The notes under the pieces were generated by a model that was not told where the DNA came from, searched no databases, and saw only the letters and a program-made list of their open reading frames with translations. A program made the translations under genes and the position numbers. A stretch of DNA of 64,000 nt from an uncultured Candidatus Saccharibacteria bacterium (lineage in GTDB: Bacteria; Patescibacteriota; Minisyncoccia; Phycocordibacterales; PALSA-1337): assembly GCA_964543075.1 (NCBI GenBank), contig CAZIVT010000002.1, positions 3,089 to 67,088 of the forward strand, given 5' to 3'. The number at the start of each line of letters is the position of its first letter. The first letter of the stretch is position 1. Positions 1,824 to 33,163 of the stretch are shown here, one piece after another.

Positions 1824-1825
1824 TC

Positions 1826-2029
1826 ATGTCTAGCAACATCACAAAACAACTAAAAAAGGCTGGTATGCACATTGAGTTGGATCAGAAGGCGTTAGATGTT
1901 GTATGTGGTATGGAACTTGATCCTGTTCAAACAAAACTGCATGCCGAGCACAAGGGCGAAGTGTATTACTTCTGTAGTACCAATTGCAAGAATCACTTTA
2001 TTAATGATCCAACAAAGTACGTTGGCTAA
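1826..2029 (+). CDS. YHS/TRASH-domain metal-binding protein
   Basis: VVCGMELDP...GEVYYFCSTNCKNHFINDPTKYV matches the YHS-domain pattern (C-G-M ... Y-Y-F-C-S-x-x-C). It starts 2 nt after the csoR stop. Confidence 0.8.
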   Translation: MSSNITKQLKKAGMHIELDQKALDVVCGMELDPVQTKLHAEHKGEVYYFCSTNCKNHFINDPTKYVG

Positions 2030-2039
2030 AAAACCATTT

Positions 2040-3185
2040 ATGAATAAATTATACTTAACTATCGCTGTAGTGATTATCGTTGGCATTGGATTTGCGCTGT
2101 TTTCCCAATCAAGTCCCGACAAATCTGCCACAGATAATGCAAAAGTAGGCAACACTGTTTCTGGCACCCAGGAAAAAATCTATATAGCTCTCGAAGATGA
2201 AGGAAAGGTTGCGGTTATGGACCCGACGGAAAGAAAGATAATCAAGACAATTGATCTTTCCAAAGAAACCGACGGTAAAGAGGTACATTTTATGGCTCAC
2301 AATGTTCAGGTATCTCCGAACGGCCAATTTGTCGCAGTCACCGCAAATGTTGCGGAAAGCATGGATGGAATGTCTAGCGGCTCAATGGCATCTCCTGATG
2401 ACTCATCTGATGAGCTTGTTATTATCAATCCTACCACTGACCAAATCACACAACGCATCCCCATTGATATAGAAAGTCATCTCGCGCATGTTGTTGTTTC
2501 AAAAGACGGGAAAACAGCATATGTGATTTCACAGGAAAAAAGCCTAGTTTATCTTATCAATCTGGAAAGCGGCAAAATAGCAAAAAAGATCGAGCTCGGA
2601 CAAAACGCTCAACCACACGGTTTACGCCTGTCATCAGACGACTCGAAAGCCTTTATAGCTCTCATTGGCAAAGGGCTGGCAATACTAGATACGGCATCGG
2701 GAAAATTTGAGACTATTCAGTTACCCGGTGCAGGTGTCCAGACAGCAGTAACCCAAGATGGTAAATACGCTTTTGTCTCGGTATACGACACTAAACAAAT
2801 TGGCCTGCTCGATCTCAAGACAAATAAATTAAGTTTTATCAATTTACCGACTGAAGCAAAGGGGCCGGTGCAAATCTATCCGTCGCCTGACTCTAAATAT
2901 CTATATGTGGCGGATCAAGGCTATTACTTCGACCAACCGTCAAGTGACAAAGTCTATCGCATTGATATAGCGAAGAAAGAGGTAGATAAGACTGTGGATG
3001 CCGGCACTGCGCCCCACGGCATCGTTGTTAATGATTCGGGAGAGTTTGCGTTTGTTACTAACTTACTAAGCAATGACATATCAGTCATTGATCTCATGAC
3101 TGATAAGGAAGTTGCAAGAATTCCAGCAGGCAAAATGCCAAATGGCATTAGTATCTGGAACAGCGTCACGGGAGGAACGCGTTAA
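2040..3185 (+). CDS. YVTN/YncE-like beta-propeller repeat protein with signal anchor
   Basis: Start moved to the ATG at 2040 (MNKLYLTIAVVIIVGIGFALF), because the longer ORF overlaps the YHS gene. Repeated propeller blades are present, e.g. PHGLRLSSDDSKAFIA and PHGIVVNDSGEFAFVTNLLSNDISVIDL. Confidence 0.7.
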   Translation: MNKLYLTIAVVIIVGIGFALFSQSSPDKSATDNAKVGNTVSGTQEKIYIALEDEGKVAVMDPTERKIIKTIDLSKETDGKEVHFMAHNVQVSPNGQFVAVTANVAESMDGMSSGSMASPDDSSDELVIINPTTDQITQRIPIDIESHLAHVVVSKDGKTAYVISQEKSLVYLINLESGKIAKKIELGQNAQPHGLRLSSDDSKAFIALIGKGLAILDTASGKFETIQLPGAGVQTAVTQDGKYAFVSVYDTKQIGLLDLKTNKLSFINLPTEAKGPVQIYPSPDSKYLYVADQGYYFDQPSSDKVYRIDIAKKEVDKTVDAGTAPHGIVVNDSGEFAFVTNLLSNDISVIDLMTDKEVARIPAGKMPNGISIWNSVTGGTR

Positions 3186-3210
3186 TTAATCAAACTAACT
3201 AATTCAAAAT

Positions 3211-3435
3211 ATGAAACTATCGAAAATACTACATGTCGCGAGTGTCATCTCAGGAGTTTTGGGAATTCTAGGGATTCTGGGCCTCTTTGGTTTCTGGGGT
3301 GTAGGGATGATGGGAAATAATCAGGGTATGATGCCGATGTCTGTAGGCTCAATCCCGCTCCTCCTAGCCGCAATTTGGTTTCAGATTGGAGCAATTCATC
3401 ACATGATACTTGAGAGAAAGGGAGAAATTGTTTAG
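3211..3435 (+). CDS. Small Met-rich two-TM membrane protein
   Basis: 74 aa, hydrophobic, with MMGNNQGMMPM between the TM segments. It sits inside the copper operon. Confidence 0.4.
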   Translation: MKLSKILHVASVISGVLGILGILGLFGFWGVGMMGNNQGMMPMSVGSIPLLLAAIWFQIGAIHHMILERKGEIV

Positions 3436-3455
3436 TCGCTTAACTAAAAAATTAT

Positions 3456-3684
3456 ATGCATAATCATAATGACAATAATAAAGAAATAAAGACGGTGGTC
3501 ACAAAGGAATGATGTTGATGATGATCCCGTGCTTGCTCCTATTAGGATTTCTGTTTCTTGGTGGGGCAACTTATCTTCTTCTGGGTATCTCTGGCCAATT
3601 CTTATTGGCGTCTTTGTAATTGTGCATGTTTGGATGATGTTCAAGGGTCACGGCGGACACGATCACGGGTCTGATAAGAAATAA
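3456..3684 (+). pseudogene. DUF2933-like small His-rich membrane protein, apparently split across three frames
   Basis: ATG 3456 gives MHNHNDNNKEIKTVVTKE then a stop. Frame 2 (ATG 3509) gives MMLMMIPCLLLLGFLFLGGATYLLLGISGQFLLASL. Frame 1 (GTG 3529 to TAA 3682-3684) ends LWPILIGVFVIVHVWMMFKGHGGHDHGSDKK, the typical DUF2933 C-terminus. Confidence 0.3.
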
Positions 3685-3689
3685 ATACT

Positions 3690-5795
3690 ATGACTCATCA
3701 CGAACACACAAAAGATCTGTACACCTGCCCTATGCATCCAGAGGTGATGCAGGACAATCCTGGTATGTGCCCTGAATGCGGTATGCGGCTGGTGCCTACA
3801 AAGAAAAAGGGATCAGTCGGACACGAGGATCATGATAAACACGCAGGTCATTCGACCAAGATGTTTTTTAGAAAGTTTTGGATAAGCCTCATTTTAACTA
3901 TTCCAGTTGTGCTCTACGCTAAGGTCGTAGAGACTATTTTCAAGTGGTCACCGCCTACTTTTCCCGGTTCGGACTATCTCCCTTTGATCTTAGGATCGAT
4001 CGTCTTTTTCTATGGTGGCTGGGTATTCCTTGCTGGTGCATGGCGTGAAATCAAAGGACGACTGCCGGGCATGATGACCCTGATCGCTATCGCTATTTCT
4101 GCCGCTTACCTCTGGAGTGTGTATGCGGTTTTTGCAGGTGCTGAAGCTCTTTTTTGGGAGCTTACAACGCTTATCACCATTATGCTTCTTGGGCACTGGC
4201 TCGAGATGCGTGCAGTTTCCGGAGCACAAGGTGCGCTTAAGGAGCTTTCAAAGCTCCTTCCTGATACTGCAGAAGTAATCCGTAATAGTGTAACAACAAC
4301 TATTTCGCTTTCCGAGCTTCGAGAGAACGATGTTGTGCTCGTAAAACCCGGAACGAAGATTCCTGCAGACGGCTCGATCATTGATGGCGACTCTGATGTA
4401 AACGAGTCGATGGTTACAGGTGAATCAAAGCCTGTTTCTAAGAAAGAGGGTGATGCAGTCATCGCCGGCACGATAAATGGAGACGGTGCGTTGAAAATTA
4501 AAGTTTCGAATATTGGCGAGAAGACATTTCTTGCCGGTGTTATGCGTTTGGTTGCTGAAGCGCAGGCTTCTAAGTCTCGTTTACAGATTCTTTCCGACCG
4601 AGCCGCTCTTTATCTAACCATAGTCGCAGTCGGCGGAGGTATTATTACACTCGTTGCCTGGCTTCTGGCAGGCGCTGATGTCGGTTTTGCGGTGGCTCGG
4701 CTTGTAGCTGTGCTTGTGATTGCTTGTCCGCACGCGCTTGGTTTGGCAGTCCCACTTGTTGCATCAATCTCTACGACCAAAGCGGCACAGAACGGCTTTT
4801 TGGTAAAACAACGCCTTGCTCTTGAGGCCGCTCGAACTATTGATACGGTGTTATTTGATAAAACAGGAACACTCACCAAGGGAGAATTCGGAGTAGTAGA
4901 AGTTTGGAACACTAGCGGACACACCAGAGACGAGGTCATAGAATTAGCTGCTTCACTTGATGCCCTGTCGGAACATCCGATCGCTCGTGCTGTTGTCGCA
5001 AAAGCAAAAGAACAAAAGTTGTCACTCAAAGATCCTAAGAAATTTGAAGCGATCAAAGGCAAGGGCGTGAAAGCAATGATCGGCGAGCAGGAGATTATGG
5101 TTGGCGGACCGGCACTTCTTGAGGGTCTTGGACTTACCGTCCCCAATGAAATCTCCAATCAGATTCAGGATACTGGCAAAAAAGGACAGACCGTTGTCTT
5201 TACAGTAAAAGATAGAAAGCTCCTCGGTGCCATTGCTCTTGCCGACATCATCCGCGAAGAATCACGAGAAGCCATTAAATCGCTCAAAGAAAGGGGTGTG
5301 AAAACAGCAATGATCACCGGTGACTCCGAAGATGTGGCCAAGTGGGTTGCCTCCGAGCTTGGCATAGATGAATATTTCGCCAGGGTGCTCCCGTCGGAGA
5401 AATCAGAAAAGGTCAAAGCGTTGCAGGATCGTGGCTTGAAGGTCGCAATGGTTGGAGATGGTATTAATGACGCTCCGGCTTTAACACAGGCCGATCTCGG
5501 CATTGCAATAGGTGCCGGCACAAACGTCGCCATTGAGTCGGCCGGTATCATTCTCGTGCGAAACGATCCCAGAGACATCGTGAAGATTGTCCGGTTGTCT
5601 CAAATGACTTACACCAAGATGATTCAGAACCTGTTCTGGGCGACCGGATACAATGTGGTCGCGTTGCCGCTTGCCGCCGGTGCGCTTGCGTTCAAGGGAA
5701 TCATTCTTGACCCGGCAGTTGCCGCCGTTTTTATGTCGGCAAGCACGGTCATTGTTGCCATTAACGCTGTCCTTCTGCGAAGGCGCGAATTATAA
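3690..5795 (+). CDS. copB: Copper-translocating P1B-type ATPase (CPH motif, His-rich N-terminus)
   Basis: DKTGTLT, GDGINDAP and TGES motifs. TM6 carries ACPHALGLAVPL (CPH as in CopB-type pumps). The N-terminus has YTCPMHPEVMQDNPGMCPECGMRLVP plus HEDHDKHAGH. Confidence 0.93.
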   Translation: MTHHEHTKDLYTCPMHPEVMQDNPGMCPECGMRLVPTKKKGSVGHEDHDKHAGHSTKMFFRKFWISLILTIPVVLYAKVVETIFKWSPPTFPGSDYLPLILGSIVFFYGGWVFLAGAWREIKGRLPGMMTLIAIAISAAYLWSVYAVFAGAEALFWELTTLITIMLLGHWLEMRAVSGAQGALKELSKLLPDTAEVIRNSVTTTISLSELRENDVVLVKPGTKIPADGSIIDGDSDVNESMVTGESKPVSKKEGDAVIAGTINGDGALKIKVSNIGEKTFLAGVMRLVAEAQASKSRLQILSDRAALYLTIVAVGGGIITLVAWLLAGADVGFAVARLVAVLVIACPHALGLAVPLVASISTTKAAQNGFLVKQRLALEAARTIDTVLFDKTGTLTKGEFGVVEVWNTSGHTRDEVIELAASLDALSEHPIARAVVAKAKEQKLSLKDPKKFEAIKGKGVKAMIGEQEIMVGGPALLEGLGLTVPNEISNQIQDTGKKGQTVVFTVKDRKLLGAIALADIIREESREAIKSLKERGVKTAMITGDSEDVAKWVASELGIDEYFARVLPSEKSEKVKALQDRGLKVAMVGDGINDAPALTQADLGIAIGAGTNVAIESAGIILVRNDPRDIVKIVRLSQMTYTKMIQNLFWATGYNVVALPLAAGALAFKGIILDPAVAAVFMSASTVIVAINAVLLRRREL

Positions 5796-5814
5796 TTAAC
5801 CGACCAATAAATAT

Positions 5815-7419
5815 ATGAAAAATAAACTAATCATTGGAATCATCGTGGTCGTTGTCATCATTGGAGGGGTTGCCCTTTTACAGCGATCTAACACTGGCAA
5901 TATAGTGATGGCCGGCAGTTTTTCTACCGACATCACCGGTCTTGCTGAAGCCAAGCAGAGCGAGACGGTCGAACTTAAGAACGGCGATACGTACGATCTC
6001 ACCGCTTCAATCGTAAAGAAAACGATCGGCAACAGCGTGGTCAAAATGCTTGCCTATAACGGCATGATACCGGGACCCATGATCAAGGTGCAACAGGGTG
6101 CGGAAGTTACTTTGAATTTCACCAATAACACCGATGTCGATACCACGATCCATTCTCACGGTGTTCGGCTGGAGAATAAGTTTGATGGCGTACCAGACGT
6201 AACCCAGAAAGAAGTGAAGCCAGGTGAATCATTTACTTACAAAATCAAATTCCCTGACGAGGGTATGTATTGGTATCACCCTCACATTCGGGAGGACTAT
6301 GCACAAGAACTTGGTCTCTATGGAAATTATCTAGTAGTTCCAAATGATCCGAACTACTGGTCTCCAGTCAATCGTGAAGTCGCACTCTTTGTCGACGACA
6401 TTCTTATCGAGAACGGCAAGATTGCAGTATTCAGCAAAGAGTCAGCTGACCGCACCCTCATGGGCAGGTTCGGGAACACCATGCTCGTAAATGGAGAGAC
6501 CAACTATTCACTTCAAGCAAAAGCCGGAGAAGTTATTCGCTTCTACATCACCAATTCAGCAAATACCAGAACGTTTAACATATCTATCCCCGGTGCAAAA
6601 ATGAAACTAGTAGGAGCTGATGGCGGCAAATACGAACGCGAAACGTGGAGCGACAGCATACTCTTGAGTCCGTCTGAACGCGCTATTGTTGAGGTATTGT
6701 TTGCCGATGCCGGATCATACAAGATTGAGCATAAGACTCCAGAGCGTACTTATACTCTTGGAACAATTACAGTCTCTCCAGAAAAAGTAGCTACTTCATA
6801 CAGTAAAGAATTTGGCGTACTGCGTTCAAATAAAGATATTCAATCGGAGATTGATGCATTCAGATCATCATTCAATAAACCGGCCGATAAACGTCTGAAG
6901 CTCACGATTGATATGGGAATGCAAATGCAGGGCATGATGCAAAGTAACACCGGCGGACATAACATGAACATGATGGGTAATGACCAGATGATGTCCAACA
7001 ATGAAATGGTGTCAAGCGGCGATCCTATCGAGTGGGAAGAAAACAATGCGGCGATGAATACGATGTCGAATCCGGAAATGATGAAGTGGGTTATAGAAGA
7101 CGAAGATACCGGCAAGAAGAACATGGACATTGACTGGAATTTCAAAGTCGGCGACAAGGTAAAAATCAAAATTACCAACGATCCGAACTCCATGCATCCG
7201 ATGCAACACCCAATCCACTTCCACGGCCAGCGATTCTTAGTCTTGAGTACGAACGGTAAGTCGAATGATAACCTCGTCTGGAAAGATACTACGCTTATCC
7301 AAAATGGGGACACCGTTGAGATTATCGTTGAAATGACGAACCCAGGCGAATGGATGGCGCATTGTCACATTGCGGAGCATTTGGAGGCGAGCATGATGTT
7401 TGGGTTTAAGGTAGAGTAA
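5815..7419 (+). CDS. Multicopper oxidase with methionine-rich insert
   Basis: Copper ligand motifs HSHG, WYHPH, HPMQHPIHFHG and HCHIAEHLEASMM. Met-rich segment MGMQMQGMMQSNTGGHNMNMMGNDQMMSNNEM, as in CueO/PcoA-type oxidases. Confidence 0.9.
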   Translation: MKNKLIIGIIVVVVIIGGVALLQRSNTGNIVMAGSFSTDITGLAEAKQSETVELKNGDTYDLTASIVKKTIGNSVVKMLAYNGMIPGPMIKVQQGAEVTLNFTNNTDVDTTIHSHGVRLENKFDGVPDVTQKEVKPGESFTYKIKFPDEGMYWYHPHIREDYAQELGLYGNYLVVPNDPNYWSPVNREVALFVDDILIENGKIAVFSKESADRTLMGRFGNTMLVNGETNYSLQAKAGEVIRFYITNSANTRTFNISIPGAKMKLVGADGGKYERETWSDSILLSPSERAIVEVLFADAGSYKIEHKTPERTYTLGTITVSPEKVATSYSKEFGVLRSNKDIQSEIDAFRSSFNKPADKRLKLTIDMGMQMQGMMQSNTGGHNMNMMGNDQMMSNNEMVSSGDPIEWEENNAAMNTMSNPEMMKWVIEDEDTGKKNMDIDWNFKVGDKVKIKITNDPNSMHPMQHPIHFHGQRFLVLSTNGKSNDNLVWKDTTLIQNGDTVEIIVEMTNPGEWMAHCHIAEHLEASMMFGFKVE

Positions 7420-7448
7420 AAGCTCGCCATACAGGCAAACAAACAAGA

Positions 7449-7475
7449 AGGGGCTTGAAGCCTCTTTTTGTTTGT
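7449..7475 (+). terminator. Rho-independent terminator after the copper operon
   Basis: Stem AGGGGC/GCCTCT (one G-U pair), loop TTGAA, followed by TTTTGTTTGTTT. Confidence 0.5.
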
Positions 7476-7491
7476 TTCAATGAGCCACTAT

Positions 7492-7887
7492 TCAACAAAG
7501 ACATGCTATGCAGATACAAAGTGCATAAGAGCATGAAGGGATGGGGGTCAGAAAGAGAATGGGTAATTTGCCGAACTTCGGCTTTTTCTCTTTGATGTAT
7601 CTTTCGGCAGGCTTGATTGTGATCTCAATTTTTGTCCGTATTTCTATCTCAAGAAGTTTCTGACAGCTGGGACAGCGCATCGTGAATGACGCATTTGAGT
7701 TGAATGCTCCGTTCTTGAAGACAATATTCGTGCAATGAGGGCAATTGCCGATATTTAATGGTTCTTGATCCATATTCGCTGGAGGGTTTGCTGGTGCCGG
7801 CGTTGATTCCGGAGCTTCAGAAACCTTTGACATGGAATTAATTAATAATCGTTCCCGACCGGGGTCGACTACTTCCCGGTCAATCAA
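7492..7887 (-). CDS. Hypothetical zinc-ribbon protein
   Basis: Contains CPHC...CPSC (NCPHCTNIVF ... RCPSCQKLL). No recognisable family and the start is uncertain. Confidence 0.4.
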   Translation of the reverse strand: MIDREVVDPGRERLLINSMSKVSEAPESTPAPANPPANMDQEPLNIGNCPHCTNIVFKNGAFNSNASFTMRCPSCQKLLEIEIRTKIEITIKPAERYIKEKKPKFGKLPILFLTPIPSCSYALCICIACLC

Positions 7888-7894
7888 CGGGCAA

Positions 7895-8428
7895 TTAAGT
7901 GTCGTCTATTGCCTTCCTTTTTGCGCCATTCATCGACATCTTGGCGACCAGCACATCTCTCATCTCCGCTAAGTTATCCCCAGTTTTTTGATCACGTGCG
8001 TAATTCTTTTTAATAAATTCTTTTTCTTTATTCTTGTTAGTAGTTCCTGCTGACTGATCTGACCGGTCTGTATGACCGATGTGCAAGTCTGATTGACCGA
8101 TCTTGTTTGAGTTCGGTCTGTATGACCGGTCTAGTTTCAACAGGTAGTACACATTGTGGTAGCGTCGCCGGCTCTTTCGGATGATCTCAAGCTTGATAAG
8201 TTGCCGGATACCTCTTTGCACGCTCGAGATGCTTGCACCGATCTTATCGGCAATGGTCTGGTGGGACGGAAAACAAAAACCCTCCTGGTTGGCGTGCTCT
8301 GCCAGGCAGTTATAAATAGCGATGCCGATTGGACCTATCGTGCTTCCGTATTCATCGAGAAGCACCTTGCTGATCCAGTACCAGTCACCTTTGCGAAGAT
8401 CTCTGATTGTTATTTTTTCATCCGGCAT
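7895..8428 (-). CDS. Winged-helix DNA-binding protein, phage/plasmid replication-initiator-like
   Basis: Start moved to MPDEKITIRDL. The segment FCFPSHQTIADKIGASISSVQRGIRQLIKLEIIRK is a typical HTH of DnaD/replication-O-like helper proteins. Confidence 0.55.
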   Translation of the reverse strand: MPDEKITIRDLRKGDWYWISKVLLDEYGSTIGPIGIAIYNCLAEHANQEGFCFPSHQTIADKIGASISSVQRGIRQLIKLEIIRKSRRRYHNVYYLLKLDRSYRPNSNKIGQSDLHIGHTDRSDQSAGTTNKNKEKEFIKKNYARDQKTGDNLAEMRDVLVAKMSMNGAKRKAIDDT

Positions 8429-8632
8429 ACACGAGAAATAAGGGCGTGGTGAGGGTTGACCAAAACCCAGACCGCACCTTATCGCTCCTCTCAATGAGGT
8501 GGCAGACCATTGAGGGGAGAGTAAGAGGCGGTCTACCATTCCTTAGATTTTGGTAGAGCCCGATCGATGTTATCCATCGCCCGGCAGAAATCTCTTCGTG
8601 TAATTGGATTTTCAAGTTCCCGGATGTTGAAG

Positions 8633-8911
8633 TTACGCAAGAGACTCTCCCGTCTCCAAAGAAGTTCCTTCCTTGTCGGTGGCTTCCGAGTCATCCGTGT
8701 CCATATCCTCCGGATAAGTCTCTTGATCAGGATTTTCGTTCTCATGTTTTTTGATGTGATCCATGTGATCCAAAAGCATGAACGCCATACGCTTAAAGCC
8801 AGCGTGGACTTTCCAAACTTCTTGTCGGGACGGCTCTCGGCCGAGTACGTCGGCGAGTGCGTTGCGAGTGAGCTCAACGAGAGCTTCCTCATCTTTATCT
8901 GGTTTGGACAT
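8633..8911 (-). CDS. Hypothetical acidic protein
   Basis: 92-aa ORF with a plausible composition. The overlapping 131-aa ORF in another frame is Arg/Ser-rich and less protein-like. Confidence 0.4.
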   Translation of the reverse strand: MSKPDKDEEALVELTRNALADVLGREPSRQEVWKVHAGFKRMAFMLLDHMDHIKKHENENPDQETYPEDMDTDDSEATDKEGTSLETGESLA

Positions 8912-8964
8912 GCGGTGGTTTGGTTCATAGAAGTGACCTCACACTTTTATTGACCCCACCTTGC

Positions 8965-9171
8965 CTAAGGCAAGAAAACTTCCTCTACTCTGACCCCGAG
9001 AGCCAAAGCGATCCGCTGGGCTGTTTCGAGATTCGGCCGTTTCCGGCCGGTCTCGTACCTGCTGATCGCAGTGTTGTGCTTAAAACCAAGAATTCGGGCT
9101 AGTTGATATTGCGTTAGCCCTTTCTTGATTCGAAGGTCACGGAGTTTTATATTCACTGGTGATTTGTTCAT
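8965..9171 (-). CDS. XRE-family HTH regulator (Cro-like)
   Basis: LRIKKGLTQYQLARILGFKHNTAISRYETGRKRPNLETAQRIALALGV is a canonical XRE HTH. It is divergent from the CI-like gene. Confidence 0.85.
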   Translation of the reverse strand: MNKSPVNIKLRDLRIKKGLTQYQLARILGFKHNTAISRYETGRKRPNLETAQRIALALGVRVEEVFLP

Positions 9172-9201
9172 AGGTTTAACTTTTAGACCTCTATAGTCAT
9201 A

Positions 9202-9219
9202 TTAAGCAAAATTGCTTAA
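9202..9219. promoter_or_regulatory. Operator palindrome O1
   Basis: TTAAGCAAAATTGCTTAA is a perfect 18-bp palindrome in the cro/cI divergent intergenic region. Confidence 0.6.
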
Positions 9220-9243
9220 CTCGTCAATATATCAGGGTGTGGA

Positions 9244-9259
9244 TAAGCAAAGTTGCTTA
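9244..9259. promoter_or_regulatory. Operator palindrome O2
   Basis: TAAGCAAAGTTGCTTA has the same half-sites (TAAGCAA-N2-TTGCTTA) as O1 and lies 42 bp away. Confidence 0.6.
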
Positions 9260-9296
9260 ATCTTTACAATTTTGCTACGATGTACTAAACTGGTCG

Positions 9297-9316
9297 TAAG
9301 CAAGGAAATTAAGCAA
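9297..9316. promoter_or_regulatory. Two direct operator half-sites
   Basis: TAAGCAAGGAAATTAAGCAA contains two TAAGCAA half-sites in direct orientation, just upstream of the CI-like ATG at 9328. Confidence 0.4.
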
Positions 9317-9327
9317 ATTCAACAAAT

Positions 9328-10047
9328 ATGTCATTTGGTTCATATCTAAAAAATCAAAGAGAATCGAAAAGTTGGACTATAAAAGAGCTGGCCGAACGGC
9401 TCGGCTTTTCCTCGAGCTACATCAGCCAGTTGGAGAATGGGACACGCAATCCATCCCATAAACAGCTGGCCGTTCTCGCCAAGGCCTATCAGCTTCCTGA
9501 AGAGGAACTGAAGAAGCATTGGACCGAGGGGAAGATCCAAAAGGTCAGCATGGAGGGCAATTATAAATTCAACATCAGCGATGTTGGCGAGAAGCGTGTT
9601 CACGAGGCCGCAAGCAAATTAGAGCAAGGGCTTGAGGAACTACGGAATACCATCTCTGGCGATGATGCATACATCAAGACGCCAGTGATTGATGCACTCT
9701 CAGCCGATGACCTCGGCACTCGTTTGAAGGAAGCGAAGGAGTTTTTCTTTCTCCCTAAAAACAGCGTGCCGGCCGGACATCGTATGTTTGGCTTTCGGGT
9801 GGATGGTTTATCACTACCCGATGCCGGCATTCTCACCGGGGACTTCACCATCCTCGATGCAGATGCTGATCCAAAGAGTGGCGATATTGTGGTGGTCGCC
9901 ACTCCGGATGGACTGGTGATGACTTATTACCATGAGCGAGGTGACTACCTTGAGCTCAGGCCGGAGACGGAGGGCTTCAAAAAGACCTACCATCTCAAGG
10001 AGAGCAAGATAGTGGGTCGGCTCGTCTACCACGTCAAGAAGTATTAA
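9328..10047 (+). CDS. CI-like repressor: XRE HTH fused to an S24/LexA-like C-terminal domain
   Basis: N-terminal HTH WTIKELAERLGFSSSYISQLENGTRNPS. The C-terminus VDGLSLPDAGILTGDFTILDADADPKSGDIVVV...LELRPE...IVGRLVY resembles the LexA/CI autopeptidase fold. The catalytic dyad was not verified. Confidence 0.8.
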   Translation: MSFGSYLKNQRESKSWTIKELAERLGFSSSYISQLENGTRNPSHKQLAVLAKAYQLPEEELKKHWTEGKIQKVSMEGNYKFNISDVGEKRVHEAASKLEQGLEELRNTISGDDAYIKTPVIDALSADDLGTRLKEAKEFFFLPKNSVPAGHRMFGFRVDGLSLPDAGILTGDFTILDADADPKSGDIVVVATPDGLVMTYYHERGDYLELRPETEGFKKTYHLKESKIVGRLVYHVKKY

Positions 10048-10133
10048 AGAACAGGGCTCTCCGCAAGGTGAGCCCTGAAGCTATTTATAGGAGGTTGATT
10101 ATAAAAAATAAGTAAAGAATTTATCAATTAATT

Positions 10134-11717
10134 ATGAACTACTTAATCTACGGCCGTGTCTCTACATCTCGTCAGGCCGAACGAGAATTGAGTATTCCAG
10201 CGCAGGTGAAAGCATGCCAGAAGTACGGCATGGATCACGGTTGGAATCTCGCACCTGATGGCATCTATGAGGAAAAGGGTGAATCAGCTCGAACAGTTGA
10301 ACGTCCACAGCTTCAGAAAATGCTTCATCGGGCAAAGACTGATAACAAGGTCGATGCGATATTGATGCACAAACTTGATCGTATGTGTCGCAACGTTGCG
10401 GACTACGCCGCAATAAAGATGATGCTCAAAAAGCACGACGTCCGGTTGATCTCGGTGGTCGAGCAATTCGATGAGTCTTTCTCCGGAGAGCTTGTCGAGA
10501 ACATCATGTCCTCAATTGCTCAATGGACGTCCCAGAACATCAGCTGGGAGGTCAGGAAAGGCCTTAAAGAGGCCGTAGAGCGTGGCAGGTTCCCCGGATA
10601 CGCTCCAATCGGCTATATGAACGATCGGAAGACCAAATCCCTGATCGTGGATACTGTTCGAGCACCATATGTGAAGCTGGGGTTTGAGCTTTACGCGACA
10701 GGCAAATTTTCTTACTACACGCTCGGTGACGAATTGGCAAAACGAGGTCTCAAGAGCAAGGCTGGCAAACGTGTCTCAAAGAAAGGCGTTGAGCGGATGC
10801 TTCAAAATTCGATCTACTACGGTCTTATAAAAACACGATCGGCCACCAATCAGGCAAACTTTCCGTCACTCATTACCAAGAAGCTCTTTGATGATGTGCA
10901 GGAAATCATCGCACAGCACAATCACTACGCCGATCGGTCTCGCAAGCACACCTTTCCGCTTACCGGCTTCATGCGATGCGGTTACTGTGGCTCGATGTTG
11001 AGTGGTCAGGTGAAAAAGGGTCACTTGTACTATAACTGCTCTCACCGACGTGACGCCAAATGTCCGGAAAGAAAGTACACTCGATCTGAGCTTATTGAGG
11101 AGCAGGTCGTAGCGTATCTCTCACGAGTCGAGTTGCCACCTAAGTTCAAGACGGTCTTGGATGCGTACTTCCAGCACTTCGCAAAAGAGCGTATGGATCA
11201 GGAGGAAAACGAACGCAAGAGCATTAAGCACGACCTGATCAGGGTGCAACAGCAGATCCGTAATATTGTCGTGGATCGCTCAAAACGCATCATTGACGCA
11301 GAGGTTTTTATAAAGATTCAGGACGAGCTTCTCAAGGAGAAAGAGATGTATCAGGATCGCTTGGCCGAGCTCGAGGGTAAGTCAGACAAATTCGTGCAGA
11401 AATTCAATGAGCTTCTCGACTTCACGGATCACGCCGATGAGGTGTATCAAAAGAGTGGCACTAGTCAGAAGCGAACGGTACTAAAGCTTTGCATTGAGGG
11501 ATTCACAGTCAGAAATCAAAAACTGACACCGATATGGACGCCAGTTTTTGATGTTCTTATGGACTTACAATGGTCCAAGTTCGATCCCCCAAAAGTCGGC
11601 GGCAAGGGTTCTAAAACCGCCTCAAAAACCCTTGCCGTACCTAAGGTTCTAACTTGGACATCTGGCGGAGACGGAGGGATTCGAACCCTCGAGGCCCTTG
11701 CGAGCCTAACACCTTAG
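10134..11717 (+). CDS. Large serine recombinase (integrase)
   Basis: Resolvase N-domain LIYGRVSTSRQ with the catalytic Ser, a recombinase domain, the zinc ribbon CGYCGSML...YYNCSHRRDAKCPE and a coiled-coil. The last 56 nt of the ORF overlap tRNA-Ser on the other strand, so the true C-terminus is uncertain. Confidence 0.9.
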   Translation: MNYLIYGRVSTSRQAERELSIPAQVKACQKYGMDHGWNLAPDGIYEEKGESARTVERPQLQKMLHRAKTDNKVDAILMHKLDRMCRNVADYAAIKMMLKKHDVRLISVVEQFDESFSGELVENIMSSIAQWTSQNISWEVRKGLKEAVERGRFPGYAPIGYMNDRKTKSLIVDTVRAPYVKLGFELYATGKFSYYTLGDELAKRGLKSKAGKRVSKKGVERMLQNSIYYGLIKTRSATNQANFPSLITKKLFDDVQEIIAQHNHYADRSRKHTFPLTGFMRCGYCGSMLSGQVKKGHLYYNCSHRRDAKCPERKYTRSELIEEQVVAYLSRVELPPKFKTVLDAYFQHFAKERMDQEENERKSIKHDLIRVQQQIRNIVVDRSKRIIDAEVFIKIQDELLKEKEMYQDRLAELEGKSDKFVQKFNELLDFTDHADEVYQKSGTSQKRTVLKLCIEGFTVRNQKLTPIWTPVFDVLMDLQWSKFDPPKVGGKGSKTASKTLAVPKVLTWTSGGDGGIRTLEALASLTP

Positions 11718-11752
11718 CACGGTGCCGCTTTCGACCACTCAGCCACGTCTCC
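11662..11752 (-). tRNA. tRNA-Ser (GCT anticodon), CCA encoded
   Basis: Manual fold of the reverse complement: acceptor GGAGACG/CGTCTCC, anticodon arm GCACC-GTGCTAA-GGTGT, long variable arm, T arm GAGGG-TTCGAAT-CCCTC, then GCCA. Confidence 0.9.
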
Positions 11753-11992
11753 ATGTAATATTTTCTTAAAGGCAGTGCCACCTTTGTAGCTTTTGACCTT
11801 CTTCTCGAGCATACGAGCCTCTTGTTCAGTGTCGGTCTCACAGTAGCATACCAGTTTCCAAGGACCATTCAACTTGGTAAAAGCACCGCCGGTGCCGCTG
11901 TTGTGCGAGACCAGTCTCTCACTCATGTTTATGGTAGAGCCGACATAATGTTTCCCATTCTTTAGGCTCTTGAGTATATAAACATACGCCAT
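11714..11992 (-). CDS. GIY-YIG nuclease family protein (YhbQ/COG2827-like)
   Basis: MAYVYILKSLKNGKHYVGSTINMSERLVSHNSG...PWKLVCYCETDTEQEARMLEKKVKSYKG is a canonical GIY-YIG pattern. The ORF has no stop of its own, and its last 13 codons are tRNA-Ser sequence with the TAA in the anticodon loop. Confidence 0.8.
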   Translation of the reverse strand: MAYVYILKSLKNGKHYVGSTINMSERLVSHNSGTGGAFTKLNGPWKLVCYCETDTEQEARMLEKKVKSYKGGTAFKKILHGDVAEWSKAAPC

Positions 11993-12061
11993 TCACTTTC
12001 GACCATCCCGCCTTTGGCGGGATAAACTCAGCCACGACCCGCCTTGGCGGGTCACGTCTCC
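11993..12061 (-). pseudogene. Decayed copy of the tRNA-Ser 5' portion (nt 1-26) interrupted by two mini-hairpin insertions
   Basis: The reverse complement reads GGAGACG[TGACCCGCCAAGGCGGGTCG]TGGCTGAG[TTTATCCCGCCAAAGGCGGGA]TGGTCGAAAG. With the brackets removed it equals the first 25-26 nt of the intact tRNA-Ser. Confidence 0.65.
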
Positions 12062-12144
12062 ATCGGTGCGCCGAAGCTCGAAAAGCGTAGGCGACCAGTC
12101 GCCAAGCCATTCTTGCACAAAAGAGGGGAGTAATCAAAGTCATC

Positions 12145-12180
12145 GAAAACAAAAGGCCGTCCACTGAGAGAATGGACGGC
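12145..12180 (-). terminator. Rho-independent terminator of the 12201..12548 gene
   Basis: Stem GCCGTCCA/TGGACGGC (8 bp perfect), followed on the minus strand by CTTTTGTTTTC. Confidence 0.6.
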
Positions 12181-12200
12181 TTGATGAGAGATATGAGAGC

Positions 12201-12548
12201 TTATCGTACTGTCGCTATACCAGTCTGTTCATCCGTGCGAACGTGTTGTTCGGCGAGCTTCCGCGCGACAGCGTCCTCGATCTGTTCTCGAGTCAGATCT
12301 AGGTCGGATCCGGTCCCGGTGACATTAGTCGGACGGACGGTCCAAAGCGTCCCTTTGCCCGGTTCTCTACATCGTCCGATGACGATGAACCGGATGGGAA
12401 TACCTTGCTCTACTTCCCAGAGAAAGTCCTTGCCGATCAGGCTTGGCGGTGAAGCTCTTCTTGACCGCGCGGCTGCCTGACGGATATCGCTGAAGGTGAC
12501 GGTTCTTTTGTTCATTCCATTGCTCGTTTCGGTATAAGATTGTTGCAT
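12201..12548 (-). CDS. Hypothetical protein
   Basis: 115-aa ORF (alternative start MNKRTV at 12515) with a downstream terminator. The opposite-strand ORF 12172..12480 is Ser/Arg/Cys-rich and looks spurious. Confidence 0.5.
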   Translation of the reverse strand: MQQSYTETSNGMNKRTVTFSDIRQAAARSRRASPPSLIGKDFLWEVEQGIPIRFIVIGRCREPGKGTLWTVRPTNVTGTGSDLDLTREQIEDAVARKLAEQHVRTDEQTGIATVR

Positions 12549-12677
12549 AGTCCGAGAGAGATGGTATTGAAATATCTATTCATTGTCAAATCAGCCAAAG
12601 ATGGGCGACAGCTGTGAATTACTCGTCTTGTCGAGATGTCCTGTGTAACCTAGAATATCTCATGAAAGGACCTTGCC

Positions 12678-12899
12678 ATGAACGAACAACCAATGCCGCC
12701 AGTCTCTCATCGGGAAGATATGGCCTCTATGGTCGGGGAAATCCTCGATCCGTTCAATGTATGGGTTACTGGCATCGCGGTCGGACATTCTCCGACGCAC
12801 AACGAGTGCGCACAGCACTATATGACACACGGCGGCCTGGAGCGTTTCAGGCAGCTACATCCGACATTCATCGTCGATCCATTGCCGGTCGCCGCATGA
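12678..12899 (+). CDS. Hypothetical small protein
   Basis: 73-aa ORF preceded by TAGAAT and an AAGGA-like motif, and followed directly by a strong terminator. Confidence 0.45.
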   Translation: MNEQPMPPVSHREDMASMVGEILDPFNVWVTGIAVGHSPTHNECAQHYMTHGGLERFRQLHPTFIVDPLPVAA

Positions 12900-12911
12900 A
12901 AGCGCATCACA

Positions 12912-12936
12912 GGCGGACCCACCGGTCCGCCTTTTG
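12912..12936 (+). terminator. Rho-independent terminator
   Basis: GGCGGACC-CACC-GGTCCGCC followed by TTTT. Confidence 0.65.
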
Positions 12937-12955
12937 TCATGGTATACTGTGTCGC

Positions 12956-13579
12956 ATGCTTGCGGCCTTTGTGACCGGCGTCATCATCGCGTTCCTCACC
13001 TCGATACCGGTCGGGCCGGTCGGCCTCCTCTGCATATCGCGATCGATCTCCCACGGCAAGTATTCCGGGATGGTGGTCGGCCTCGGTGCCGCCGTGGTCG
13101 ACGCCTTCTTCGCCGCTGTAGCGGCTTTCAGCCTGACAGGCATCGTCCATTTCATCAAGGACTACTCCATCGCGTTCCATATCGTCAGCTTCTGCGCGCT
13201 CATCGGTGTCGCTATCTACTTCCTCCGAGCCAAGACCCATGTCGCGCACGAGCATCGCCGCGAGGTGTCGCACAGCGAGAATTTCTTCGTCTCCGCTTTC
13301 CTCAATATCACCAACCCATTCGCCATCTTCGGTTTCTTCACGCTCTTCGCACTAGCTGGCTTGGGTCGAGGCATCGGCCACGGGGAAGCGATCGCCGCGG
13401 TCGGAGGAGTCTTCGTCGGGGCGTGTCTCTGGTGGTATCTCCTAGCGGCTGTCTCCGACCGTTTCGAGTCCAAAGTCGACGATCGCATGATGACCGCGCT
13501 CAACCGCGCCTTCGGCATCCTGATCATCGCCTTCGTCGTTTTCCTCGCGTTCAAGTTCGTGCTGTCGCTTTTGCACTAG
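12956..13579 (+). CDS. LysE/RhtB-family amino-acid exporter
   Basis: Start moved to MLAAFVTGVIIAFLTSIPVGPVGLLCI (typical LysE N-terminus). About six TM segments. TATACT sits 7 nt upstream of the ATG. Confidence 0.8.
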   Translation: MLAAFVTGVIIAFLTSIPVGPVGLLCISRSISHGKYSGMVVGLGAAVVDAFFAAVAAFSLTGIVHFIKDYSIAFHIVSFCALIGVAIYFLRAKTHVAHEHRREVSHSENFFVSAFLNITNPFAIFGFFTLFALAGLGRGIGHGEAIAAVGGVFVGACLWWYLLAAVSDRFESKVDDRMMTALNRAFGILIIAFVVFLAFKFVLSLLH

Positions 13580-13635
13580 GCCGATGGCACACGACCTATT
13601 TTGAAATAGGGCATACATACGCTACTATTAGAGCC

Positions 13636-14835
13636 ATGAAGACCGTCACTGACAAAGCGCGCATCGAAGAACTCTTGGCGCGCGGCATGCTCGTCGAAGC
13701 ATATCCATCCAAAGCCGAGCTCATGGAGCGGCTCCTCTCAGGCGATCGTATCCGGATCTACTACGGCCTCGATCCGACGCATACCGCCATCCATCTCGGT
13801 CATGCCAAGAACCTTATATTCCTCGAAGAGCTCCGTCAGCTCGGCCATGAGGTCATCGTCCTCTTCGGCGATTTCACCGCCACGATCGGCGATCCGACCG
13901 ACAAGGCCGCCGCTCGTTCTCAGCTCACTGTCGAACAGGTCAAAGAGAACATGAAGACGTGGATCGAGCAGATCACGCCGCTCGTCGATTTCGATGACGC
14001 GGATAATCCCGCGCGCGTCGAGCGCAACTCCTCATGGCTCTCCAAACTCTCATTCGCCGACGTTCTCGATCTCTCTTCCAATTTCACTGTCCAGCAGATG
14101 CTCGAGCGTGATATGTTCGAGAAGCGCATGGAGACCGGTGCGCCTATCCACCTGCATGAGTTCATGTATCCGCTGATGCAGGGATACGACAGCGTGGCGA
14201 TGGATGTGGATGCTGAGCTATGTGGAACCGACCAGATCTTCAACGCTCTAGCCGGACGCACGCTCCTCAAGCGCTACAAGAACAAGGACAAGCTCATCAT
14301 CGCTCTCAACCTGATCGCTAACCCTGCAACCGGCGAGCTGATGTCCAAGTCCAACGGCACCGGCGTGTTCATCGACCAGTCGCCGGCCGATCTATTCGGT
14401 TCGATCATGGCGCTCCCTGATCCGATGATCGAGCCGCTCTTCACGCACTGCACCCGTATCCCGATGTCAGACAAGGAGGGGTTCATGGCCGCCGGGCCGA
14501 GGAAGGCCAAGGCCGCTGTGGCGCTCGATATCGTCAAGCGTCTCCATGGCGAGTCAGCGGCGCTGGCGGCAGAGCAGGCATTCGAGAATACCTTCGCCAA
14601 AGGCGGCGTGCCGGATGATGTGCAGGAGGTCTCCCTGGGAGACGGCGAGCATCTCTCTGATGCGCTCGTCAAAGCAGGCGTTATATCTTCCAAGGCCGAG
14701 TGGCGCCGGCTCATCGATGGCGGCGGCATCCGTACCGAGGACGACGAGAAGATATCCGACCCTCATTTCAAACCGGTCAAGACTGTAGTCCTCAGGGTTG
14801 GCAAACGGAGGTTTGTAAGAATAGTACCGCGCTAG
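13636..14835 (+). CDS. tyrS: Tyrosine--tRNA ligase
   Basis: HIGH motif (DPTHTAIHLGH), KMSKS variant (GELMSKSNG), TyrRS-like core and a C-terminal S4-like domain (LSDALVKAGVISSKAEWRRLIDGGGI). The upstream 234 codons of the long ORF are an Arg-rich alternative frame of lysE. Confidence 0.92.
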   Translation: MKTVTDKARIEELLARGMLVEAYPSKAELMERLLSGDRIRIYYGLDPTHTAIHLGHAKNLIFLEELRQLGHEVIVLFGDFTATIGDPTDKAAARSQLTVEQVKENMKTWIEQITPLVDFDDADNPARVERNSSWLSKLSFADVLDLSSNFTVQQMLERDMFEKRMETGAPIHLHEFMYPLMQGYDSVAMDVDAELCGTDQIFNALAGRTLLKRYKNKDKLIIALNLIANPATGELMSKSNGTGVFIDQSPADLFGSIMALPDPMIEPLFTHCTRIPMSDKEGFMAAGPRKAKAAVALDIVKRLHGESAALAAEQAFENTFAKGGVPDDVQEVSLGDGEHLSDALVKAGVISSKAEWRRLIDGGGIRTEDDEKISDPHFKPVKTVVLRVGKRRFVRIVPR

Positions 14836-28605: not shown

Positions 28606-30879
<2,274 letters not shown>

Positions 30880-31609: not shown

Positions 31610-33163
31610 ATGCCAATAGACTTACAAAATCTGACGATCGTGAAAGCGCATGAAGCGCTCAAGAAGGGCGAATTCACTTCGGTCGAATTGACGCAGGCGT
31701 ATCTGGATCAAATTGCCGCACGCAACGGCGACATCTACGCATATCTGGAGGTCTTCGAAGACGCGATAGATCAGGCCAAGGAGGCGGATAAGAAAATACA
31801 AGGATTGATCTCGCCAACGGCGGGGTTGACCCCGCCTGTGGCGGGGTTGAAAGAAGGAAAGATTGAAAGATTGAAAGATTCGGATACAGCCGCGGATTTC
31901 CCGATGTTGCTGGGCATCCCGTGCGCGATCAAAGATAATATCCTCATCAAGGGCCACATCGCCAGTTCAGCGTCCAAGATATTGGAGCGATATCATGCGA
32001 CCTACGATGCCACGGTCATCCGCAAGCTCAAGGAGGCCGGCGCGGTCTTCCTCGGACGCACCAATATGGACGAATTCGCTATGGGCGGCTCGACCGAGAA
32101 CTCCGCCTATGGTCCGACTAGGAATCCGCACGATCTCGAACGCGTTCCAGGCGGGACCTCGGGAGGATCGGCAGCTGTCGTAGCGGCGGACATGGCATTG
32201 TTTGCGCTCGGCTCGGATACAGGAGGATCGATCAGACAACCTTCGAGCTTTTGTGGTGTGGTAGGGATCAAACCGACATACGGCAATGTATCACGATATG
32301 GTCTGATGGCGGCTGTTTCGTCATTTGACCAGATTGGTCCGATAGTCAAGACGGTCGAAGATGCCGAAATAGTATTTGATGTGATCAAAGGGAAGGATGA
32401 GAAGGATGGAACAAGTCAAAATTCTCCCGCCTCCGCTCCACTCCGCGAAGCTTCGGCGGGCAAGCAATTCCCAATTCCCAATTCCCAATTCCAACACAGG
32501 CAAGATCGATTGCGTATAGGTATTCCGAAACACTTCTTGAAAGGAGATGGCATCGATCCGGCGGTCGTGAAGGCGTTCGAATCTTCGGTGGAAGCGCTTA
32601 AAGCTAAGGGATATGAGGTGATCGATATCGAGTTACCGAATATCTCGTATTCATTACCTGCATATTATATTCTGAACTTTGCGGAAATATCGTCCAACAT
32701 GGCGCGCTATGATGGTATGAGATTCGGTCTCCATGTAGATGGCGCGGACGGCATCGGCGACTATTTCGAGACGCGCAAGGCGGGCTTAGGCAAGGAGGTC
32801 ATCCGCCGCATCTTGCTCGGCACCTATGTACTCTCGTCAGGATACTACGACGCCTATTACAATCGCGCCAATGCCGTGCGCCGGATGATCACCGAGGACT
32901 TCACCAAAGCATTTCAGTCAGTCGACGTCATCGCCACGCCGACCACGCCATCTCCTGCGTTCAAACTCGGCGAGAAGACGAGCGATCCGGTGGCGATGTA
33001 TCTGGAAGATATATTCACCGTGACGGCAAACCTGACGGGCATGCCGGCCATCTCCGTGCCGATGAAGACCGACGGATTGCCCGTAGGCATCCAGTTCACC
33101 GCGCCACAGGGAGGGGAGAGCGCTCTATTTGAGATCGGAAAAGAGACGGAGATAGTCGAGTAG
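31610..33163 (+). CDS. gatA: Glutamyl/aspartyl-tRNA amidotransferase subunit A with two extra in-frame segments
   Basis: Amidase signature GGSSGGSAA-like GGTSGGSAAVVAA, GSDTGGSIRQP and KDNI. Confidence 0.95.
   Translation: MPIDLQNLTIVKAHEALKKGEFTSVELTQAYLDQIAARNGDIYAYLEVFEDAIDQAKEADKKIQGLISPTAGLTPPVAGLKEGKIERLKDSDTAADFPMLLGIPCAIKDNILIKGHIASSASKILERYHATYDATVIRKLKEAGAVFLGRTNMDEFAMGGSTENSAYGPTRNPHDLERVPGGTSGGSAAVVAADMALFALGSDTGGSIRQPSSFCGVVGIKPTYGNVSRYGLMAAVSSFDQIGPIVKTVEDAEIVFDVIKGKDEKDGTSQNSPASAPLREASAGKQFPIPNSQFQHRQDRLRIGIPKHFLKGDGIDPAVVKAFESSVEALKAKGYEVIDIELPNISYSLPAYYILNFAEISSNMARYDGMRFGLHVDGADGIGDYFETRKAGLGKEVIRRILLGTYVLSSGYYDAYYNRANAVRRMITEDFTKAFQSVDVIATPTTPSPAFKLGEKTSDPVAMYLEDIFTVTANLTGMPAISVPMKTDGLPVGIQFTAPQGGESALFEIGKETEIVE

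Follow-up and report, generated by a model that had tools for sequence, protein, structure and literature searches.

In a 64,000-nucleotide (nt) stretch of contig CAZIVT010000002.1 from an uncultured Candidatus Saccharibacteria bacterium (the window), an open reading frame (ORF) for a GIY-YIG nuclease domain lies between a hairpin-interrupted 5' fragment of a tRNA-Ser(GCU) gene and a complete version of that gene. Our analysis suggests that this locus is probably one copy of a widespread, minimal selfish nuclease cassette, housed inside a partly duplicated tRNA gene and spreading by recombination. The architecture of the locus, its recurrence in other genomes, the existence of empty sites, the selection acting on the ORF and the fold of its product are observed; from them we infer a nuclease activity, a cleavage target, a route of mobility and a role for the hairpins. 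The locus is read on the minus strand throughout, where a promoter-like motif is followed by the split tRNA fragment (nt 1-25), the GIY-YIG ORF and the intact tRNA-Ser(GCU):

12156..12180, minus strand: terminator-like hairpin with a T-run, closing the upstream transcription unit (ORF115)
12106..12122, minus strand: promoter-like motif TTTTGTGCAAGAATGGC with a TG-extended, -10-like element; predicted function
12090..12103, minus strand: extra small palindrome GGCGACTGGTCGCC, in the 44-nt spacer between promoter motif and fragment
11996..12061, minus strand: pseudo-tRNA, the 5' fragment (nt 1-25) of tRNA-Ser(GCU) in three blocks, with homologous fragments in other genomes
12061..12053, minus strand: fragment block 1, GGAGACGTG, equal to tRNA nt 1-9
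12052..12037, minus strand: GC palindrome 1, ACCCGCCAAGGCGGGT, between fragment nt 9 and 10
12032..12026, minus strand: fragment block 2, GCTGAGT, equal to tRNA nt 10-16
12025..12005, minus strand: GC palindrome module 2, TTATCCCGCCAAAGGCGGGAT, separating fragment nt 16 and 17 in the D-loop
12004..11996, minus strand: fragment block 3, GGTCGAAAG, equal to tRNA nt 17-25
11714..11992, minus strand: GIY-YIG nuclease ORF of 92 codons, Slx1/UPF0213 type, with codons 81-92 and the stop formed by tRNA sequence
11663..11752, minus strand: intact tRNA-Ser(GCU), called by ARAGORN as tRNA-Ser(gct) and by the Rfam tRNA model with 56.7 bits (E=9e-11)

An initial annotation of this DNA had placed a GIY-YIG ORF between an intact tRNA-Ser and a partial 5' copy of it, and ARAGORN, Rfam, Pfam and the block match all agree with this assignment. 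The three fragment blocks are identical to the local tRNA at 25/25 positions, and the two mini-hairpin insertions described in the annotation are indeed present, whereas the fragment covers tRNA nt 1-25 and not, as stated there, nt 1-26. Block 3 is followed by a TGA and then by the ATG of the ORF at position 11992. It is also correct that the ORF lacks a stop codon of its own: it overlaps the intact tRNA by 39 nt (11714..11752), with the C-terminal 12 residues of its product (GDVAEWSKAAPC) encoded by tRNA nt 1-36 and its TAA (11716..11714) provided by tRNA nt 37-39, the final anticodon base and the subsequent AA of the anticodon loop. At the other end, the hairpin with its T-run at 12156..12180 sets off the cassette and the tRNA as a separate unit. 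The similarity between fragment and tRNA, whose significance the annotation had named as a point on which its interpretation could fail, gives a colinear-block score of 25 that was matched by 1/300 shuffles (p about 0.007). Moreover, the fragment is predicted to fold into two hairpins (-18.7 kcal/mol as DNA, z=-4.86), and the palindrome motif occurs in six copies in the window, with none expected. Taken alone, these in-window statistics are moderate; the decisive evidence is the recurrence of the arrangement in other genomes.

Using one genome per species and a locus search profile built from a 7-sequence alignment, we detected at least 474 relatives of the ORF among 599 candidate stretches of a species-level genome collection. 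The architecture was then scored at 81 loci from different species, comprising the best 80 relatives and the window itself. A same-strand tRNA directly adjoins the ORF in 73 of them, and in at least 47 of the 81 the opposite flank of the ORF carries, in addition, a partial copy of this tRNA that is interrupted by a palindrome of the type CCCGCC-N2-5-GGCGGG. Both the GIY-YIG/tRNA adjacency and the tRNA fragment are therefore strongly recurrent features, as the interpretation in the initial annotation requires. The loci fall into the following classes:

40/81 loci: hairpin-interrupted 5' fragment, ORF, intact copy of the same tRNA
7/81 loci: mirror form, with intact tRNA, ORF, hairpin-interrupted 3' fragment
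26/81 loci: adjoining tRNA, fragment below the conservative threshold
8/81 loci: no adjoining tRNA, several being masked or located at contig ends

The fragment score is conservative, with loci L011, L016 and L020 falling below the threshold despite visible fragments. The fragment starts at tRNA nt 1 in 30/40 loci, and the ORF stop lies within the tRNA in 28/60; the end points of the duplication vary among loci, and the fragment matches the local tRNA in every lineage. At 9-11 of 52 loci, the intact tRNA is in turn followed downstream by another copy of that tRNA, disrupted by palindromes, leaving the ORF and the intact tRNA flanked by disrupted copies or halves. The tRNAs involved are mostly Ser (GCU, UGA, GGA) and Tyr, but also Met, Pro, Phe, His, Gln, Gly, Arg, Val and others. 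The hosts mostly belong to the Patescibacteria and also include metagenome-assembled genomes (MAGs) labelled Bacteroidota, Ignavibacteria, Omnitrophota, Poribacteria and others. Homologues from Tagabacteria and other Patescibacteria with 59-64% identity have the same length, share a tRNA-encoded end (...NGEVAEWSKAAxC) and run into a tRNA-Ser gene. In eight Tagabacteria contigs, the ORF overlaps tRNA-Ser(GCU) by 38-39 nt, and the sequence GGAGAGGTGGCTGAGC-TTGTCCCGCCGTAGGCGGGATGA-AGTCTAAAGCGGC just upstream of the Tagabacteria ORF corresponds to nt 1-30 of the local tRNA, with the same palindrome in its D-loop; the upstream genes of these contigs are constant and their downstream content is variable, including serine recombinases. 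One locus, L089, represents the strain of the window (100% identical) and provides no independent evidence. A candidate ORF between two intact copies of one tRNA (L078) was rejected, the two tRNAs being different in sequence.

An indication that the cassette can be gained or lost comes from two metagenomic contigs (L090 and L108) that are syntenic with the window (TyrS, ComF). Their tRNA-Ser(GCU) gene has the same promoter motif (TTTTATGCAAGAATGGC plus 9 nt), with neither a fragment nor an ORF. In these cassette-free relatives, the TTTTGTGCAAGAATGGC-type motif thus lies 9 nt upstream of tRNA nt 1, the empty site of L090 reading TTTTATGCAAGAATGGC-ACAGTAATT-GGAGACG, and the 44-nt spacer that separates motif and fragment in the window is missing. 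These relatives uphold the proposal of a tRNA-linked nuclease cassette that inserts and regenerates an intact tRNA. Presence/absence polymorphism within a species was not found among the loci compared. Both contigs also contain a second, divergently oriented tRNA-Ser-like gene with the anticodon ACT about 115 nt from tRNA-Ser(GCU) (L090, positions 949-1036; L108, positions 2353-2440). An ACT anticodon is unusual for bacteria.

Several further comparisons may point to horizontal movement. The identity of the ORFs does not track that of the syntenic ComF genes (rho 0.006 for 28 pairs, in a pairwise comparison of short proteins from few loci). The nearest-neighbor ORF resides at the same tRNA type in 30/62 cases, compared with 14% expected by chance, and by this measure ORF lineages are associated with a tRNA type but switch between types. 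The window tRNA itself looks mosaic: relative to the cassette-free relative, it matches at 9/9 positions in nt 1-9 and 27/27 in the T-arm and acceptor but at only 21/36 in nt 10-45, a segment in which it matches cassette-linked tRNAs from other classes at 32-35/36 positions. At locus L013, the disrupted copy is of the native tRNA type, whereas the intact copy adjoining the ORF is of another type. Furthermore, two loci from a single Tagabacteria species (L001 and L002), whose ComF and GIY-YIG proteins are about 100% identical, differ upstream of the fragment and in its first bases, 80-145 nt upstream of the ORF. The L001 fragment begins with GGAGGCG, like tRNA-Ser of other lineages, and the L002 fragment with GGAGAGG, like the local tRNA, which suggests recombination at the fragment.

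The predicted product of the ORF matches the Pfam GIY-YIG family (PF01541) over residues 1-68 with 59.1 bits, compared to a cut-off of 22.6 (E=5e-16). In an alignment of 17 sequences, Y3/Y5, Y16 and G18 are nearly invariant and R26, H30 and E63 invariant; the invariant C-terminal Asn of the UvrC branch is absent. An AlphaFold model (pLDDT 86.7, with a low-confidence tRNA-encoded tail) predicts the beta-beta-alpha-alpha-beta-alpha arrangement of the GIY-YIG fold (E2-9, E15-20, H23-32, H37-42, E45-53, H56-68). Foldseek matched this model exclusively to GIY-YIG domains, the best matches being At-HIGLE, Slx1-Slx4 and BH0048 and not I-TevI (E=4e-4 to 1e-2 for HIGLE and Slx1, 0.46 for I-TevI), and the E-values of the sequence search were 1e-10 for BH0048, 2e-5 for EF2693, 2e-4 for SLX1 and 5e-4 for I-TevI. 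According to the published definition of the Slx1 and UvrC/I-TevI branches (PMC1564403), sequence and fold thus place the ORF in the structure-specific Slx1/UPF0213 branch, as a minimal domain, and the label "YhbQ-like" given in the initial annotation is right at the family level. There is no DNA-binding module: the domain at residues 1-68 is followed by a single helix and the 12 tRNA-encoded residues. Sequence conservation and the modelled fold make this protein a putative nuclease. A dN/dS ratio (nonsynonymous to synonymous substitution rates) of about 0.08, obtained from one unsaturated pair, indicates strong purifying selection, and only about 4/80 ORFs are visibly broken. The base composition (45% GC; 0.55 GC at third codon positions, GC3, compared to values of about 0.6-0.8 in host genes and of 0.40-0.57 in the neighboring integrase island) is not decisive as to its origin.

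The palindromes that split the pseudo-tRNA are a hallmark in their own right. Their core, CCCGC(C)...(G)GCGGG, is common across phyla, and modules of the D-loop type are flanked by CTTG...TGAA. The D-loop position and the flanks of module 2 recur at many Ser and Tyr loci in distant lineages, and the position of palindrome 1 is also occupied in L011, L016 and L020. We counted 62 modules within -200..+250 nt of 80 ORFs (1.1 per kb), as opposed to 14 in 373 kb elsewhere in the cassette loci (0.038 per kb) and none in 298 kb of other loci, a 29-fold enrichment next to the ORFs. The base pair flanking the core, scored without using palindromy as an inclusion criterion, is C-G in 36 and T-A in 32 of 73 cases, with two mismatches, indicating that the stem is maintained. 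Modules occupy whichever partial tRNA copy exists, 5' or 3' of the ORF, and at some loci are found on both sides. A 30-nt double module has opposite orientations in two loci with 83% identical ORFs, which argues for a DNA-level element. Collectively, these features point to a DNA-level module and not to an RNA regulatory element. A role of the hairpins as plain terminators or elements of a 5'-untranslated region was considered and rejected, given that their side follows the partial tRNA copy, that they are invertible and that they also occur within coding genes.

Individual loci show additional rearrangements of these parts. At L013 (3345-3400), a disrupted tRNA-Ser copy holds the module TTATCCCGCCAAGGCGGGACAG within the loop of a second module, as would be expected if modules insert as units. 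L016 contains a second hairpin-bearing 5' fragment between ORF and intact tRNA (3240-3330), and its ORF reads through this fragment, such that the C-terminus of the protein is encoded by palindrome sequence. In L098 (4155-4520, minus strand), two tandem units, about 180 nt in length and lacking an ORF, lie ahead of a tRNA-Ser(GCU) gene, each made up of promoter-proximal sequence and tRNA nt 1-18, followed by hairpin-rich non-coding sequence; they may represent a non-autonomous relative of the cassette. In L079 (2260-2976), located on a Poribacteria chromosome, seven tandem tRNA-like units with a spacing of 107 nt lie directly upstream of the GIY-YIG ORF, and another partial tRNA-like copy is found 3' of it.

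The initial annotation had explained the fragment as the old 5' end of the tRNA, left to decay after the insertion. Viewed in isolation, the window, with its short and interrupted fragment, would fit a single local insertion followed by random mutation and chance acquisition of hairpins. Yet the same palindrome, with the same D-loop position and the same CTTG...TGAA flanks, occurs at the same positions in dozens of species from distant lineages and also beside other tRNAs. Mirror-form loci and loci disrupted on both sides are equally at odds with decay, as are the full identity of the blocks to the local tRNA and the covariation of the stem pairs. Recurrence with the same palindrome instead makes the pseudo-tRNA a conserved hallmark of the cassette, and we regard its origin by decay as highly improbable. 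Even less credible, in our estimation, is an intron or split-tRNA organization, in which the fragment and the 3' half of the tRNA would make up the real tRNA, with the ORF and the second 5' part being removed. Although tRNA and rRNA genes are rich in introns in the candidate phyla radiation (CPR; Patescibacteria) (PMC13011429; PMC11270868) and the fragment begins exactly at tRNA nt 1, a complete, high-scoring tRNA is present downstream, and the palindrome takes the place of the D-loop GG. In an Rfam scan of positions 10000..14000 with E-values up to 10, fragment and ORF matched no intron family, no ribozyme and no other known motif apart from the tRNA itself. A design at the RNA level is also hard to reconcile with the mirror-form loci and the inverted modules.

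The window contains four solo modules outside the cassette, and the GIY-YIG gene of the cassette is the only one found in it. Two of these modules lie in LigA, one in GatA and one behind a tRNA-Thr gene:

29413-29454: in-frame modules in LigA (28609..30879, plus strand), with about 21 extra adenylation-domain residues exactly at this site compared with solved LigA
31831-31845: in-frame module in GatA (31610..33163, plus strand), with about 12 extra residues
34757-34770, minus strand: solo module TTTGCCTGTCCCGCCAAGGCGGGATAAA, 27 nt after tRNA-Thr(CGU), with no adjoining ORF or tRNA fragment

The in-frame modules in LigA and GatA resemble the Rickettsia palindromic elements. Solo modules away from the cassette are what one would expect if the GIY-YIG nuclease mainly served to spread or maintain the GC palindromes, in the manner of REP/RAYT systems, with the tRNA locus merely providing a safe harbor. 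The nested module in L013, the 29-fold enrichment of modules beside a nuclease gene flanked by its repeats and the fold of a structure-specific nuclease are also in line with this possibility. Solo modules are scarce, however (four in 64 kb here and 14 in 373 kb elsewhere), and a REP/RAYT-like scenario leaves unexplained why the gene has a near-constant duplicated-tRNA setting and why the modules sit in the duplicated copy. In addition, GIY-YIG enzymes, unlike HUH transposases, form no covalent DNA intermediate. We therefore view a primarily palindrome-spreading role as rather unlikely, if still the best-placed of the alternatives discussed here.

Only slightly less weight attaches to the idea that the nuclease and its pseudo-tRNA leader have been domesticated as a vertically inherited accessory of a tRNA operon, with candidate functions in tRNA-precursor processing, quality control or the guarding of tRNA genes against integrating elements. 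The strong purifying selection, the low proportion of visibly broken ORFs and the frequent presence of integrase islands at the same tRNAs speak for such a role, as does the fact that cassette-linked tRNA-Ser(GCU) is found near a ComF-like gene in several CPR classes. A fusion of TrmH with a GIY-YIG domain has, moreover, prompted an earlier suggestion of an RNA-related role (PMC1564403). On the other hand, syntenic relatives do without the cassette, the similarity of the ORFs does not follow that of host genes, and an ORF lineage changes its tRNA type. Forward and mirror architectures coexist, with variable duplication end points, and integrase islands are present in spite of the cassette. On balance, we consider domestication improbable.

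The other end of the intact tRNA borders on a serine-integrase island, as noted in the initial annotation:

10134..11717, plus strand: large serine recombinase in a separate, lower-GC island, with its final 18 codons antisense to tRNA nt 36-90

This island (positions 1-11717) has a GC content of 0.42-0.49, compared to 0.55, and encodes a Cu-type P-type ATPase, a multicopper oxidase, an M23 peptidase, an HTH-S24 repressor and the large serine recombinase, whose ORF overlaps the 3' half of the tRNA in antisense orientation. The same kind of integrase/tRNA overlap is seen in the Tagabacteria loci L002, L004 and L005. Positions 9955-9976 (minus strand), 160 nt ahead of the integrase start, agree at 18/22 sites with the 3' end of tRNA-Ser (TTGAAGCCCTCCGTCTCCGGCC). 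They may represent a displaced attachment (att) site or a tRNA remnant, which would mean tandem accretion of islands. The position of the island next to the tRNA, the island-like 45% GC of the GIY-YIG ORF and the presence of integrases beside cassette-bearing tRNAs in six loci could suggest that the fragment is an att duplication produced by the serine-integrase island, with the GIY-YIG gene as its cargo. However, a serine integrase lies beside the cassette-bearing tRNA in only 6/88 loci, on the opposite side of the tRNA from the duplicated segment, and most cassette loci, including Tagabacteria variants with differing downstream content, have none. It is the 5' end of the tRNA, facing away from the island, that has been duplicated, and the GC3 of the ORF (0.55) is not clearly island-like. 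An origin as a by-product of integration is thus very hard to sustain; the serine recombinase is a neighbor of the cassette and not a part of it.

How might a selfish cassette of this kind operate? The unit of the family would be an approximately 80-codon GIY-YIG gene of the Slx1/UPF0213 type within a partial tandem tRNA duplication. In the window, the tRNA's own promoter would drive a single transcript comprising the pseudo-tRNA (nt 1-25), the nuclease ORF, which would borrow its stop from the anticodon loop, and the intact tRNA. The insertion would be harmless to the host because an intact tRNA copy is retained. Spread between genomes, and occasionally between tRNA genes, could occur by break-stimulated recombination, with homology arms provided by the conserved tRNA sequence; indeed, a layout of partial copy, ORF and copy would be expected from single-crossover integration of the ORF together with a tRNA segment, or from an equivalent gap-repair event. 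The two copies of a family-specific GC palindrome that split the pseudo-tRNA would inactivate the redundant tRNA copy and chop the direct repeats into pieces of 16 nt or less, such that the cassette is not deleted. They may also serve as a substrate or handle for the nuclease, which has no DNA-binding domain. Finally, an RNase P cut at tRNA nt 1 would leave the mRNA without its stop codon, which would keep nuclease expression low.

It is tempting to speculate further that the cassette is a new autonomous mobile element, among the smallest with a size of about 0.3 kb, in which a bare, structure-reading nuclease invades and duplicates tRNA genes, palindromes disable the resident copy and the host comes to depend on the nuclease-fused copy as a "tRNA hostage", with palindromes also being seeded in frame into housekeeping genes. 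The nuclease would then find its targets, either tRNA genes or its own GC palindromes, through the structure of the DNA and not through its sequence. We offer this extended scenario tentatively and think it more likely to be wrong than right.

Several considerations weigh against a selfish, recombination-driven cassette. The nuclease activity, its target site and the transfer event are putative. An intact tRNA persists in cassette-bearing genomes, in some mirror-form loci with its native flank, so that a classical homing site located wholly within the tRNA would not be immune to cleavage, and a homing enzyme that reads a specific sequence would not typically be an 80-residue protein devoid of a DNA-binding domain. 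The nearest cassette-free relatives are distant (62% TyrS identity), and a scan of viral contigs found no relatives of the ORF. Moreover, the integrase island may have supplied the 3' part of the window tRNA, which weakens the argument from mosaicism, and the ComF/tRNA-Ser synteny, along with the purifying selection, would also fit long vertical retention with a host function. As for the data set, the 81 loci are the closest relatives of the window ORF and not a sample of all UPF0213 proteins, the comparisons bearing on mobility use small samples, and the data mostly come from MAGs.

Structures of UPF0213/YhbQ-type GIY-YIG proteins have been solved, and in the literature searched no function is reported for them. 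The near-obligate tie of a large subfamily to duplicated tRNA genes now provides concrete, testable biology for these proteins. The selfish-cassette interpretation, if true, would illustrate how a specific class of genes can be targeted even by a nuclease whose small size precludes the reading of long sequences. It would also reveal a new, harmless way of colonizing tRNA genes, in which the gene is partly duplicated and its promoter and a stop codon are borrowed, and would account for a part of the tRNA gene fragments and of the unexplained short insertions into essential proteins that are found in CPR and other genomes. For genome annotation, ORFs running into tRNAs and hairpin-disrupted pseudo-tRNAs are easily mis-called.

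The arrangement of a GIY-YIG gene, a tRNA fragment and palindromes is real and strongly recurrent. It is mentioned neither in the 2006 survey of GIY-YIG proteins (PMC1564403) nor in the 2026 study of tRNA interruptions in Patescibacteria (PMC13011429), and we found no description of it in the literature searched, which is no proof of novelty. This putative selfish gene, of the free-standing nuclease type and targeting tRNA genes, is thus apparently undescribed, with a substantial chance of a new mechanism.

The proteins closest in sequence and fold, Slx1, At-HIGLE and UPF0213 members (YhbQ; BH0048, 1zg2; EF2693, 1ywl), share the minimal domain and the lack of a C-terminal Asn (PMC1564403), but the literature searched does not link them to tRNA genes, mobility or palindromic repeats, and eukaryotic Slx1 requires Slx4 and a RING domain. 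Some integrative elements insert into tRNA genes and bring along a replacement piece of the tRNA; they similarly leave behind an intact tRNA and a partial duplicate, making use of the conserved tRNA as a portable target. The cassette differs from them in that it has no integrase, measures only about 0.3 kb, duplicates the 5' end and contains a palindrome-interrupted duplicate. In REP/REPIN-RAYT systems, short GC-rich palindromes likewise flank a single nuclease gene, and the Rickettsia palindromic elements, like the modules in LigA and GatA, are inserted in frame into housekeeping genes. Compared with REP/RAYT, however, the enzyme is of the GIY-YIG and not the HUH type, the modules are only about 15-26 nt long with few solo copies, and there is a tight coupling to duplicated tRNA genes. 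Insertions with GIY-YIG ORFs in CPR rRNA genes (PMC11270868) share the host group and the location of small GIY-YIG ORFs within structural RNA genes and belong to neither group I nor group II introns. They may be relatives of the cassette, although they reside in rRNA instead of tRNA genes, were described as sparse and "outside the context of homing" and have no reported target duplication or palindromes. The nearest functional analogue is SegB of T4-like phages (PMC2330249; PMC13096335), which is also encoded by a GIY-YIG gene among tRNA genes, promotes the inheritance of its own gene and the flanking tRNAs by break repair and has been linked to the duplication and amplification of the tRNA locus. 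Seg enzymes, by contrast, comprise about 200 residues or more, contain DNA-binding domains and belong to the I-TevI/UvrC branch, and their phage-borne genes show no pseudo-tRNA, palindromes or ORF/tRNA overlap, whereas the cellular cassette described here encodes a bare Slx1-branch domain of about 80 residues.

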